From a phage, in sequence record PZ445521.1: a DNA stretch of 64,000 nucleotides; one strand, written 5' to 3'. Below are positions 30,579 through 35,286 of the stretch, one piece after another (within the stretch, counting starts at the first letter, position 1; the number at the start of each line of letters is the position of its first letter). The position numbers and the translations under genes were made by a program. The notes under the pieces are model-generated. The model did not search any database and had not been told where the DNA came from. It saw nothing but the letters and a program-made list of their open reading frames with translations.

Positions 30579-31052
30579 TTATTTGAACGATTTAACGTAC
30601 TGAATAGAACCTTTACTATTCACAAAGGCAATTTTACCATTTTTGTTATACATGGTAGCAGTACGTTGATAGCCATAAGTTTGTTTACCAGATTGATAAC
30701 CAACTAATGCAAAATTATCTTCGCCCATTTTATTCTGTTTAGCGCGGATGCGTTCATGACCATGTGCCATAAGAACCTTAGCATCACCGGTTGCAATGGA
30801 TCGACGAGTTTTTTCATCTTCAACTGTATTAACAAAGTCGTCAAATGAATCAAATTTAGCATGAGATTTATTATACAGTTTTCCATCTACTGCATAATTA
30901 TATCCCTGTACATCCATCTCAACTTCTGTACCATCATCCAATACAGCAGTGATTTTTTGACCTTTTTTAAATTTCAAAAGATCAGTAAAAGATTCAGCAA
31001 TAATTTGAGAATTAATAGCTGCTTCAGTGATAAATTCTTGATATGTTTTCAT
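30579..31052 (-). CDS. internal (head-packaged) protein candidate with capsid targeting sequence
   Basis: 157 aa; N-terminus MKTYQEFITE; next to denV. Confidence 0.6.
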   Translation of the reverse strand: MKTYQEFITEAAINSQIIAESFTDLLKFKKGQKITAVLDDGTEVEMDVQGYNYAVDGKLYNKSHAKFDSFDDFVNTVEDEKTRRSIATGDAKVLMAHGHERIRAKQNKMGEDNFALVGYQSGKQTYGYQRTATMYNKNGKIAFVNSKGSIQYVKSFK

Positions 31053-31068
31053 ATGATTCCTTTAATTT

Positions 31069-31386
31069 TTATTCTTTAGGAAAATTTTTAGAATATGCGT
31101 CGTAAAGCTTATTTCCAATACGACGAAAAACTCTAGCTGCAAAACGATTTTCTGGGTTTTTAATCATAATTTGCATCATATAAGTACCCGCGTCTGAAAG
31201 AGCTTCTTCATAGTACCCGTTAATTTCTTTAAGAGTCCTACGTTTACCACCAGGACCATCAACAGTGATTTTCCATTTACCTGTAGAAGTGCGACTCGGC
31301 GGCTCAACTTGTTCAATCCAAATATAACCGCCTTCTACACGTTGTCCTGCAGCAGATTCTGCAATAAATTCTTGATATGTTTTCAT
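31069..31386 (-). CDS. internal (head-packaged) protein candidate with capsid targeting sequence
   Basis: 105 aa; N-terminus MKTYQEFIAE. Confidence 0.6.
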   Translation of the reverse strand: MKTYQEFIAESAAGQRVEGGYIWIEQVEPPSRTSTGKWKITVDGPGGKRRTLKEINGYYEEALSDAGTYMMQIMIKNPENRFAARVFRRIGNKLYDAYSKNFPKE

Positions 31387-31872: not shown

Positions 31873-32840
<968 letters not shown>

Positions 32841-32859
<19 letters not shown>

Positions 32860-33329
32860 TCAGTGATAAAGCTATTTAAATTTTGGGTATATTTCTTTTC
32901 ATCAAAAATCTTTTGTTGTCTGCGTAAACGCCATGGCATTTCAATGAACGTGTACCATATCCCAGATAATATTGCTGCTGTAAAAATATTAACAAGTATG
33001 GTTAAAATAATCCAATCTCCCGTTCTGTCTACTGGACTTTCTCCAAAGAAGCAAAATACAAATGATGTCACAGGAAAACTAATAATGTACCACAGAATCA
33101 TAATTTTATCTGTGAACCAATCAGCATTTGTTAACTTAGCACGACCATTATGAATACACACGAATTTATCATCTGTTATAATAGATGGCTTAGCTGCTTG
33201 ATATCCCATTCTAAACTCCCTAATCAACAAATTTTTCATATCTTCGGAACAACCATTCCAGTCAACTCTATTAACTGAAATGCCATCATCCCCATCATCT
33301 AAATCATACCAGCGAGTTTTTAAAATCAT
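32841..33329 (-). CDS. hypothetical membrane protein with C-terminal FITECRKLK motif
   Basis: 162 aa; two hydrophobic segments. Confidence 0.55.
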
Positions 33330-33700
33330 TTAATTTTCCTACAATCACTCACAAACTCTTCCATTGATTCTTTTTCAATATAAGACATGTAGTTATTATA
33401 TTCTTTTAATTGTATTTTGTAATCCTTTTTTCTTTGCCAATTTATTTTAAAATTATCATAATGAAAATATAAAATAATACCAAAGAATGAAAATAATGAA
33501 ATCGCTATAGTATAATGAAGTTCACTCCAAACTTCTATTATATCTACTATACCGCTGACATTACTGCGGATGTTTAAAATAATACAGTCAATCATTAATC
33601 CAATAAGACTACCAGCAAGAGCTGCAGCCAACGCCACAGCAAAAATTAAAAATGACTCAGAAAAAGAATATTTGACTTTATTTAGTTTTGGCTTTTGCAT
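33326..33700 (-). CDS. hypothetical membrane protein with C-terminal FVSDCRKIK motif
   Basis: 124 aa; two hydrophobic segments. Confidence 0.55.
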   Translation of the reverse strand: MQKPKLNKVKYSFSESFLIFAVALAAALAGSLIGLMIDCIILNIRSNVSGIVDIIEVWSELHYTIAISLFSFFGIILYFHYDNFKINWQRKKDYKIQLKEYNNYMSYIEKESMEEFVSDCRKIK

Positions 33701-34095
33701 CGTGATTCCTTAACAAATTTCATAATTTCGTTAAATTCATGCATATCTAATTTAAGCTGGTGTTCCTTTTTAATCTTTTTACACTGAGCTTTCCATTCAC
33801 GTACACGTTTACGATAATGTCTTCCTTGATACCAGTATCCTACCCAATTTACCGGTACTAATAAAAGTGGAACTACCAATGGAAGAATTAGCATTAACAC
33901 AAGTATTTCGCCAGAATCAATATCAGTCATAACATCTAAAACACCTCCAATAATCAATAGAATTACAAATGATATAAGTATAACAGGACCTATTAATACA
34001 TCGGTAGAAATTATCTGGTGCTTTGATTCATACTTCAAAGGTTTACTTGGAAGGTATAGTGATGGTTTTGACATATTCTCTACATTCCTTAACAA
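33682..34095 (-). CDS. hypothetical membrane protein with C-terminal FVKESRCKSQN motif
   Basis: 137 aa; two hydrophobic segments. Confidence 0.55.
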   Translation of the reverse strand: MLRNVENMSKPSLYLPSKPLKYESKHQIISTDVLIGPVILISFVILLIIGGVLDVMTDIDSGEILVLMLILPLVVPLLLVPVNWVGYWYQGRHYRKRVREWKAQCKKIKKEHQLKLDMHEFNEIMKFVKESRCKSQN

Positions 34096-34651
34096 ATTTT
34101 TCTAATAATAAATCGCTTTCAAAATTGGGATTTTCCACGAATTTATCAAAAAGATCATCAACAATAGTTAAGATATTCTTTTTACTAAGAATACGTTTAT
34201 TTTCATGCTTCGTTTCAGAATCAACTATAAGAGTAAAGAAATATTTCTTGCCCTGAAATTTTACCGTAGTATCAATATAGAATAAATTTGACTTTTGTAA
34301 ATTACGTTTAAACCATGCGTCACTTAAACTATAAACACCGAGATAATCATAATCGTCATTTAAATAACATACTGTCCATTCAGGGGAAACGAAATCAGTA
34401 AATTCAACGTCAAAATCGCATGTTAATAAATGAATTGATTCAATACTGTTAATAAGTATTCCAGGACGTATTAAAGACTTTTTACCTCTGGAAAATCTTC
34501 CAGAAAGACTTTCATCAGTTTCATATGAAGAACCCCAATAATAATTACGTCCTTCTGCCATACGTTTAAGAGCATTTAGTAATTGGTCTGGAACATCAAC
34601 TTGTCTTTGGAATTCTTCAAACATTGAATTGAAATCACTTTGCATTTTCAT
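34043..34651 (-). CDS. hypothetical protein with C-terminal FVKECREYVK motif
   Basis: 202-aa ORF, no clear hydrophobic segment. Confidence 0.55.
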   Translation of the reverse strand: MKMQSDFNSMFEEFQRQVDVPDQLLNALKRMAEGRNYYWGSSYETDESLSGRFSRGKKSLIRPGILINSIESIHLLTCDFDVEFTDFVSPEWTVCYLNDDYDYLGVYSLSDAWFKRNLQKSNLFYIDTTVKFQGKKYFFTLIVDSETKHENKRILSKKNILTIVDDLFDKFVENPNFESDLLLEKFVKECREYVKTITIPSK

Positions 34652-34672
34652 TCCTATTTACTCCAAGTAATA

Positions 34673-34686
34673 GGGGCCGAAGCCCC
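34673..34686 (-). terminator. stem-loop (UUCG loop on transcript)
   Basis: ggggc-cgaa-gcccc hairpin 3' of ORF 34693..35286. Confidence 0.4.
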
Positions 34687-34692
34687 TTATCA

Positions 34693-35286
34693 TTATTTCA
34701 GAGAATTAATATATTCCTGAACATCGGCAGAGGTGGTTTCAACCCCAGAAATATTACCATTAAAGGTTTCAACTCGAGCAAGAGTATCTTCAATATCAAC
34801 CTTAGTCAGTGCTGCAATTTCAACTACATCATCGGCAGTACTAATTCCAAGTGCATTCGCTGCTCGAGTTTCACGGATATATTCCAATTTAACTGCAAGT
34901 TCTTGGCGAGCATCATCCAATTCAACTACTTTCTTGGCGATTTCAATTCGCATTTCAGCATACCCATCAGCTTTAGTAGTTAACTGTTCAGCTGTTCGAC
35001 GATATAGCAAGCCGAGTTTAGCATGCATTGTTACATCTTGACCTTCAGAAAGAAGCTTGCGAATTTCACGCTCTTTTGATTCGGCCTGCTTATTCTTTTC
35101 AACGATAAGTTCACGAATACGCTTTTCTTCATTAATAGATTTAATAGAAGCAGTTTTTAGATCTTTAATTTTATCAAGTAGTTTTGCTGCTGCAGCAGTA
35201 TACTGTTCTTCAACAGATAGATTTTTAGCCATAGCAGAACCAAGTTTAGTGCGAATAAACTCAACAATTTTCTTCAGTGTGTTCAT
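34693..35286 (-). CDS. hypothetical coiled-coil protein (PspA/IM30-like composition)
   Basis: 197 aa, predicted long helical charged repeats; family assignment tentative. Confidence 0.5.

Follow-up and report, generated by a model that had tools for sequence, protein, structure and literature searches.

The stretch of phage DNA examined here (64,000 nucleotides of sequence record PZ445521.1; hereafter "the window") carries, between positions 32,841 and 34,651 on its minus strand, four adjacent genes, e.5, e.4, e.3 and e.2, whose products appear to end alike. This arrangement raises a question: is the common ending a genuine peptide motif and, if so, what might it do? A sequence-only reading of the window had proposed that three small two-helix membrane proteins and a soluble 202-residue protein are encoded head to tail at this site, that each ends in a motif containing Cys-Arg-Lys, and that such a tag on divergent bodies points to a common interaction partner or a processing signal.

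The window is that of Shigella phage JK38 (Tequatrovirus): the 2.9 kb around e.2–e.5 match it at 100% identity, and hundreds of T4-like genomes match them at 95–97%. Genes e.6, e.5, e.4, e.3, e.2 and e.1/nudE all lie head to tail on the minus strand, with the genes for T4 lysozyme and denV downstream.

A common C-terminal tail on divergent proteins

The C-termini of e.5, e.3 and e.2 read F-[IV]-x-[ED]-C-R, and e.4 ends in a degenerate copy, FVKESR. The 319 six-frame open reading frames (ORFs) of the window contain three matches to the strict pattern F[IVL].[ED]C[RK], each at one of the first three C-termini; for a relaxed pattern, residue shuffles gave a probability of 0.0075 for three or more tail hits. 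A 23-column hidden Markov model (HMM) of the tail, run against the complete JK38 genome (1620 ORFs), found e.2–e.5 to be the sole scoring genes. When the HMM was built from 35 tails of other genera, with no Tequatrovirus sequence among them, e.5, e.2 and e.3 were the top three of the 1620 ORFs (E about 2e-3). In this leave-one-genus-out form, the best match after these three reached 6.8 bits, which is noise, and e.4 fell within that noise. Comparison of family profiles by hhalign yielded the tail as the sole local alignment in each pair of e.2–e.5 families compared: e.3 with e.4 (38 columns, E 1e-6), e.2 with e.3 (19 columns, E 4e-5), e.3 with e.5 (12 columns, E 2e-4) and e.2 with e.5 (12 columns, E 4e-4). 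The similarity noticed at first sight is therefore significant on alignment, by profile comparison and by HMM alike.

The proposal that all four proteins end in a similar Cys-containing motif held for e.5, e.3 and e.2, as F-[IV]-x-[ED]-C-R, and only as a degenerate copy for e.4. The last of these has Ser at the motif Cys position; the "C" that follows in SRCK is the TGC of cgATGc, that is, the e.3 start codon read in the e.4 frame. An alignment of its C-K with the C-R-K of the others is spurious for this reason, and it is the family-level homology of its tail with that of e.3 that places e.4 in the tail set. In the e.4 family, a Cys is kept in a post-transmembrane element, E-W-K-x-Q-C-K-K, and is absent from the C-terminal copy. 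This second motif-like element (EWKAQCKK, 33775–33798, minus strand) directly follows the second transmembrane (TM) segment, and its W and C are invariant across the family.

To describe the motif by position, we used 39 tails from 12 Straboviridae lineages; the position counts, codon counts and distances to the next start given below all refer to this set. By phmmer, the 39 proteins fall into seven multi-member families and 13 singletons. Together with the hhalign alignments, which joined tails alone, this grouping bears out a shared C-terminal tag on divergent bodies. The tail is genuine as a peptide motif and is under selection (see the codon data below), and the proteins that carry it are divergent and for the most part unrelated.

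The consensus is Φ(-3)-[E]-x-[F/W](0)-[I/V]-x-x-C(+4)-[R/K](+5)-basic. Position 0 is F in 37 tails and W in two, and position +1 is I in 30 and V in eight. Cys occupies +4 in 30 of the 39 (otherwise I, V, M, S, A or L), and +5 is always basic (R 33, K 6). Position -3 is hydrophobic in 33 tails (L in 16). The remaining positions are looser: E at -2 in 18 tails (acidic in 19), K at +2 in 15, E or D at +3 in 19 and three, respectively (acidic in 22), and mostly basic residues or G at +6 and +7. All members of the e.2 family keep F, I, C and R; among 12 diverse e.5-like proteins the sole invariant columns are N98, F186 and C190, the latter two belonging to the motif.

Positions -3, 0, +1 and +4 fall on one, hydrophobic, face of an α-helix. 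The mean hydrophobic moment of the tails is 0.411, versus 0.305 for shuffles of the same residues (standard deviation of the shuffle means, 0.022). In a low-confidence model of e.5 the motif lies in the last helix. By a Kyte-Doolittle scan e.4, e.3 and e.2 have a pair of TM segments apiece and e.5 lacks them, which agrees with the earlier description of three membrane proteins and one soluble one, all encoded head to tail on the minus strand; the length of e.4 is 130 residues, not the 137 assigned to it. Lys and Arg are sparse in the loops between the TM segments (0–2) and abundant in the C-terminal tails (7–15), so by the positive-inside rule the two-TM proteins have both termini inside and their tails, like soluble e.5, in the cytoplasm.

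The coordinates of the four genes, all on the minus strand, are as follows. Gene e.5 (34043–34651; PHROG 2607) encodes the soluble protein of 202 residues, a member of an e.5-like superfamily found directly after e.6 in every sampled lineage. It ends in LEKFVKECREYVKTITIPSK; the tail LEKFVKECREY spans 34073–34105 and its core FVKECR 34079–34096, with the AAGGAA and the ATG of e.4 inside it or just 3′ of it. The inner-membrane protein e.4 (33682–34074; PHROG 2604) ends in IMKFVKESRCKSQN, with the degenerate FVKESR at 33700–33717. Its start is the conserved ATG at 34074 and not the upstream TTG at 34095. Mechanical ORF calls overextend both e.4 (TTG, 137 versus 130 residues) and e.1 (ATG, 151 versus 146 residues) relative to annotated T4 records, and the extra codons (34075–34095 and 32845–32859) fall within the tails of e.5 and e.2. 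Gene e.3 (33326–33700; PHROG 2330) encodes an inner-membrane protein of 124 residues with the tail MEEFVSDCRKIK at 33329–33364 (core FVSDCR, 33338–33355). The 162-residue e.2 protein (32841–33329; PHROG 2203) has an N-terminal soluble domain followed by two TM segments and a tail at 32844–32879 (core FITECR, 32853–32870).

The e.2–e.5 proteins thus belong to four different PHROGs, none with an assigned function, and have no Pfam or PADLOC match in our scans. A precomputed Pfam accession, PF26876, is listed for e.5. Scans of 26 tail proteins against Pfam, PHROG and PADLOC returned no functional family, and no record that we examined carries a functional annotation for e.2–e.6.

Dual coding with the next ribosome-binding site

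Translationally coupled overlapping genes, with ATGA junctions and the Shine-Dalgarno sequence in the upstream ORF, are common in T4 early regions. The chain e.5-e.4-e.3-e.2-e.1 resembles them: its starts overlap or sit within the preceding ORF, and the Shine-Dalgarno sequence lies in the upstream tail. In all four window genes the motif codons overlap the downstream Shine-Dalgarno sequence or start. The e.5/e.4 junction is aaatttgttAAGGAAtgtagagaatATG and the e.4/e.3 junction aaatttgttAAGGAAtcacgATG; in both the Shine-Dalgarno sequence is AAGGAA (in e.4, internal to FVKESR, with the next TGC overlapping the e.3 ATG), and the two have 16 identical nucleotides in common, aaatttgttaaggaat. The e.3/e.2 junction, tgtAGGAaaattaaATGa, and the e.2/e.1 junction, tgcAGGAaattaaaATGa, each combine AGGAAA with an ATGA stop/start overlap. 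The Shine-Dalgarno codons consequently differ by gene, being K-E in e.5 and e.4 and R-K in e.3 and e.2, and the ending K-[IL]-K-stop amounts to an A/T-rich spacer plus the ATGA overlap. The last gene of the coupled chain, e.1 (32404–32844, minus strand; NudE, a Nudix hydrolase), has no tail motif.

In the wider set, the next ATG lies -1 to 15 nt from the Arg codon in 26 of the 39 tails. Arg is encoded by AGA or AGG in 16 of 23 tails with a near next start versus three of 10 with a farther one (Fisher p = 0.057). That tail DNA doubles as the next Shine-Dalgarno sequence and start accounts for the position of the motif at the extreme C-terminus, for R-K-x-K-stop in e.2 and e.3 and for the AGR excess; part of the motif's basic extension is likewise coded by the next gene's translation initiation region. 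The chain differs from plain T4 overlaps, however, in that the overlap explains the last two to four residues and the AGR bias, not the conserved F, I/V and C.

Codon usage speaks to the same point. Phe is TTT in 24 tails and TTC in 13; Cys is TGT in 13 and TGC in 17; Arg is AGA in 11, AGG in seven, CGT in seven, CGA in five and CGC in three. The motif is also kept in 13 of the 39 tails for which the following start lies at a distance of 19 to 149 nt, including proteins with 15–25 residues past it. The Gaprivervirus e.5 tail, FIKECR, is encoded by TTT ATT AAA GAA TGC CGT and ends 22 nt before an ATG; the second e.5-like protein of Aeromonas phage 65.2 continues for 24 residues past the motif, with no start codon for 149 nt; and further tails without a near start codon occur in Tegunavirus, Tulanevirus and Karamvirus. 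Since Phe and Cys are each written with both of their codons and Arg with five, and since the motif persists where no start is near, selection acts on the peptide. On the same grounds we rejected the idea that the motif is conserved as nucleotides only. This dual coding, together with the artefactual e.4 Cys and the PspA-like appearance of e.6, had gone unremarked in the sequence-only reading.

Spread and plasticity of the module

The motif is far more widespread than the window by itself could show, recurring in all 12 Straboviridae lineages sampled and in 42 IMG/VR loci. We took the regions 3′ of e.6, which tblastn finds in 1107 phage records, from Mosigvirus, Gaprivervirus (VR25), Dhakavirus (the JS98 group), Mosugukvirus, Jiaodavirus, Ishigurovirus, Karamvirus, Tegunavirus, Tulanevirus, Pseudotevenvirus (RB43) and an unclassified Klebsiella phage. 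In all sampled lineages e.6 is followed by an e.5-like soluble protein of 178–316 residues with the motif. In most Tevenvirinae, one to six small two-TM proteins and a few small soluble ones with the same tail come next. At least 15 sequence families carry the motif in the 12 lineages, in such forms as FIKECRK, FIDDCRRNKNA, WIRSCRK, FISKCRTKR, FVTYCRGNK and FINQCRRK.

In the 42 IMG/VR e.6 loci, the tail HMM gave 129 matches of at least 9 bits, a count that is not independent, the HMM having been trained partly on the same phages. None is more than 23 residues from a C-terminus, every one is on the e.6 strand, and all but one are downstream of e.6 (the exception is upstream). The opposite strand of these loci yielded no match of at least 9 bits (maximum, 6.6 bits). 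One locus without an HMM match still encodes ...LFVDYCRRTASKK right after e.6, and all 42 have a motif-bearing e.5-like gene as the immediate successor of e.6. The e.5 superfamily is small: 14 representatives at E ≤1e-3 in 1.84 billion proteins, of which all full-length ones keep the motif. The tail is conserved at the level of the peptide on unrelated bodies, cytoplasmic, helical and amphipathic, and confined to the e.6-headed unit.

In several genera the FIxxCR-tail genes alternate with those of a second small soluble family (61–103 residues), present in one to five tandem copies; the JK38 window has none of them. Its members end in W-x-S-S-x-x-x-C-stop, typically GWVSSSxxC*, often followed by TAAGGAA; in the sampled loci they occupy L001 3857–4651, L009 6862–8112, L018 7407–7718 and 8265–8450, L021 6299–6825, and L022 7553–8576. 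The conserved C-terminal Cys of this family may be related to the tail motif.

The composition of the cluster is fluid. Dhakavirus has no e.4, and its e.5 ends in a hybrid tail, FIAECREYAK+EVQNGTA, whose joint lies in the junction repeat AARGRGGTTCRWAATG; the same repeat flanks e.4 in Gaprivervirus. The last residues of the Dhakavirus e.5 match the Gaprivervirus e.4 tail (L014 6100–6200 versus L009 6100–6560), with the breakpoint in the repeat of Shine-Dalgarno sequence and ATG. The absence of e.4 from Dhakavirus offers a natural instance of a gene lost, or gained, through recombination at such repeats. In Mosigvirus, another gene takes the place of e.2 in the coupling to e.3, and e.2 itself is found at a distance of 5 kb. 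Genes e.3 and e.4 have in common an N-terminal M-x-K-P-S-L element as well as size and topology; the two are probably tandem paralogs that arose with their junctions copied whole, from the upstream tail through the Shine-Dalgarno sequence and ATG to the N-terminus.

Remnants of tail genes were also observed. In one Mosigvirus-like IMG/VR contig (L008 6560–6700), e.3 is a frameshifted remnant that has kept its start and tail and lost its TM region. In the T4 record OZ209057 (L002 3860–4347), a frameshift splits e.2 into ORFs of 102 and 63 residues, the latter retaining FITECRKLK. Since the two pieces have PHROGs of their own (35263 and 35580), disruption of e.2 is probably common in T4-proper genomes.

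Short repeats at gene boundaries in a variable region recall the promoter/stem-loop (PeSL) cassettes that underlie modular shuffling in the hyperplastic regions of T4-type phages (PMC2839356, PMC4122927), and the indel breakpoint of the Gaprivervirus/Dhakavirus e.4 in the junction repeat adds to the likeness. Here, however, the repeat consists of coding sequence plus ribosome-binding site and is conserved at the peptide level, in contrast to an intergenic promoter and terminator. No PeSL cassette is present at the e.5–e.1 junctions, where coding overlaps leave no space for a promoter or stem-loop. The only hairpin, a GC-rich UUCG hairpin (AAGGGGCTTCGGCCCCT, 34672–34687, minus strand), separates the stop of e.6 from the start of e.5. 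In some GenBank records the matched region bears a terminator annotation, and G/C-rich sequence follows the e.6 stop in other genera too. The hairpin could set the expression ratio of e.6 to e.5–e.1, either as a partial terminator or by stabilising the RNA.

A candidate partner for the tail and the alternatives

What could so many different proteins do with the same tail? The conserved first gene of the module, e.6 (34693–35286, minus strand), encodes a protein of 197 residues that is 30–99% identical across the Straboviridae, and it is a candidate partner of the tails. An AlphaFold2 model from a 41-sequence alignment (predicted local distance difference test, pLDDT, 75.6) shows a short N-terminal helix (residues 3–22), a long helical hairpin (25–80 and 86–145) and short C-terminal helices, PspA/Vipp1-like in appearance. 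When this model was compared with the PDB by Foldseek, the best eight matches were all Vipp1, followed by archaeal CdvB2. Of the 41 e.6 homologs, nine matched PspA_IM30 in Pfam (best E 7e-5), as many as matched PHM7_cyt, and no Pfam family was matched by more. Vipp1 also aligned with e.6 in register from the N-terminus (residues 3–140) when PDB sequences were searched with a profile, and one Joint Genome Institute (JGI) record labels an e.6 homolog "phage shock protein A". Taken together, e.6 is probably a member of the PspA/Vipp1/ESCRT-III superfamily. The most conserved e.6 stretch, K-L-E-[YF]-I-R-E-T-R (34864–34890, minus strand), resembles the tail L-E-x-F-I-K-E-C-R in a shifted register (4.6 bits); this may be coincidence, or the tails may mimic an e.6 helix.

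The explanation that we favour, at slightly better than even odds, is that the tail is a docking helix by which the proteins of the module share a single partner in the cytoplasm; this would be e.6 or, just as well, the e.5 body. It is made plausible by the topology of the carriers, the amphipathic character of the helix and the strict synteny with e.6 and e.5. The module itself is Straboviridae-wide: e.6 stands at its head and is always followed by a motif-bearing e.5-like soluble protein, then in many genera by a variable, often reshuffled string of two-TM proteins with both termini inside and a few soluble ones. The tail helix would dock these proteins on e.6 or on the e.5 body, and the small two-TM proteins would act as exchangeable membrane anchors or adaptors, as LiaI does for LiaH or PspB/PspC with PspA.

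Several results weigh against this proposal. The link to e.6 is based on synteny only, and inheritance of the cluster as a block would give the same synteny without any contact between the proteins. The PspA_IM30 (PF04012) scores in the e.6 homologs are below the gathering threshold, and the JK38 e.6 itself has no PF04012 match. The match of e.6 to the Vipp1 PDB sequence falls to E about 5 with a larger alignment, and hhalign of e.6 against Escherichia coli PspA is not significant (probability 1.8%). The small tail proteins match no Pfam model of PspB, PspC or LiaI (26 proteins; 24 weak sub-threshold matches, each in one to four members). The e.5 model (pLDDT 57) is too poor to tell a free tail from one packed on the body. 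Finally, nine of the 39 tails, those of the whole e.4 family included, have S, I, V, M, A or L in place of Cys, so that Cys-specific chemistry is not universal. Since small or hydrophobic residues can replace it, this position argues for a packing contact rather than obligatory thiol chemistry.

Other explanations have to be set beside docking. The one nearest to the DNA holds that the motif is mere read-through of the next gene's Shine-Dalgarno sequence, spacer and ATG(A), with no role as a peptide. All four window tails do coincide with the translation initiation region of the gene that follows, two-thirds of the whole set (26 of 39) have the next ATG no more than 15 nt off, with AGR enriched there, and two junctions have their 16-nt identity. 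This account nevertheless covers the last two to four residues only: F, I/V and C precede the Shine-Dalgarno sequence and draw on all their synonymous codons, Arg comes from both AGR and CGN, the Shine-Dalgarno sequence falls on differing motif residues, and the motif survives with the next start as far as 149 nt off. We regard it as very improbable. A junction cassette that was inherited or spread by recombination, the tail serving homo-oligomerisation or folding of each protein without a shared partner, is a better contender and yet an unlikely one. The probable paralogy of e.3 and e.4, whose tails align over 38 columns (E 1e-6) and which agree in M-x-K-P-S-L, size and topology, is what it would predict, as is the exchange of tails by recombination at repeated initiation regions, exemplified by the hybrid e.5 tail and missing e.4 of Dhakavirus. 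It is harder to square with e.5 and e.2, which share just 12–19 columns with e.3 on unrelated bodies; moreover, independent self-association does not call for four identical residues in more than 15 families from Tevenvirinae to Emmerichvirinae.

Two further accounts assign the tail a different task. It might be an in-plane membrane-binding amphipathic helix that holds e.5-like proteins at the inner membrane and lies on the surface in the two-TM proteins. The amphipathic pattern, the basic residues at +5 to +7 and the membrane-related context (two-TM neighbours and a PspA-like gene) would suit such a helix; but its hydrophobic face comprises just four residues, acidic residues are common at -2 and +3 (19 and 22 of 39), which is unusual for membrane-targeting helices, and lipid binding would not need anything as specific as the near-invariant F, I, C and R. 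We deem this improbable. The suggestion of a processing signal, made at the outset, can be widened to any processing, degradation or redox signal: a cleavage site such as that of T4 gp21 (I/L-x-E), a degron, a Cys-Arg thiol switch or a nascent-peptide element for termination and re-initiation. In some tails F-I-x-E conforms to I/L-x-E, and it is reminiscent of MKTYQEFI[TA]E, the targeting peptides of IPII/IPIII encoded in the window; a basic residue always follows the Cys, and in most genes the motif is a few codons from the stop. With acidic residues at +3 in just 22 of 39 tails, no cleavage- or degradation-type consensus across the set and no Cys in the whole e.4 family and others, the suggestion finds no support. 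The e.5-like proteins have 5–25 residues past the motif, some without a nearby downstream gene, and most motif carriers are inner-membrane proteins, which, to our knowledge, are not expected inside T4 proheads. Such a signal has, in our estimate, a slim chance of being the answer. A link to the capsid-targeting peptides of the internal proteins, MKTYQEFITE and MKTYQEFIAE (31023–31052 and 31357–31386, minus strand), was considered separately and rejected, their tail-HMM scores being at noise level; the resemblance is probably coincidence.

Docking on a common partner would have precedents. LiaI anchors LiaH in Bacillus subtilis, and PspB and PspC engage PspA in E. coli. As in those systems, a PspA/IM30-like gene stands in one unit with genes for very small inner-membrane proteins, whose cytoplasmic parts could recruit its product; such a small inner-membrane protein gene shares a unit with the pspA-like e.6 in at least nine genera. 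Unlike PspB, PspC and LiaI-LiaF-TM, the phage proteins lack sequence membership in those families, have two TM segments and carry a common C-terminal F-I-x-x-C-R helix. A second parallel comes from ESCRT-III, the MIM helices of which bind MIT domains and exemplify short helical motifs that dock many clients on one hub. There, too, otherwise different carriers have in common a short, amphipathic helix at the C-terminus in which a few hydrophobic and charged positions are fixed. The phage tail departs from the MIM helices in its consensus; its hub is only a candidate, and the motif is on the putative adaptors, not on the ESCRT-III-like protein. In PspA-PspAA dyads, a soluble partner gene comes directly after a pspA-like gene (PMC11237479), just as the soluble e.5-like gene comes directly after the PspA-like e.6. 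The phage module differs from the surveyed Psp systems in being phage-encoded and in that its e.6 is PspA-like only probably; the survey mentions no such helix and covers no viruses (PMC11237479). Our literature search on e.2–e.6, the tail motif and phage-encoded PspA found neither the motif nor a PspA-like e.6 described.

A bolder reading, which we put forward tentatively and hold to be doubtful as a whole, is that T4-like phages carry their own PspA/Vipp1-type membrane-maintenance module. In it, e.6 would form the polymer, into which e.5 and lineage-specific tiny inner-membrane proteins (e.2–e.4 and their analogues) would be plugged by a universal C-terminal F-I-x-x-C-R helix. The tail DNA would be a portable junction for the insertion, loss and re-tailing of adaptor genes by recombination.

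The e.1–e.8 region of T4 was sequenced decades ago, and four of its "hypothetical proteins" now form a defined module conserved across the Straboviridae. The module comes with a handle: a ten-residue cytoplasmic helix motif with four key mutable residues, beside a probable membrane-remodelling gene of the PspA/Vipp1/ESCRT-III type. The locus is also a clean case of dual coding, with a peptide motif and the next ribosome-binding site on the same nucleotides, and shows how such junctions can favour gene gain and loss. Should the tails indeed dock on e.6 or e.5, the virus would encode a Psp-like system of its own, complete with membrane adaptors that can be swapped, and this would bear on the way in which T4 maintains an energised inner membrane in its host during infection, superinfection and lysis inhibition.

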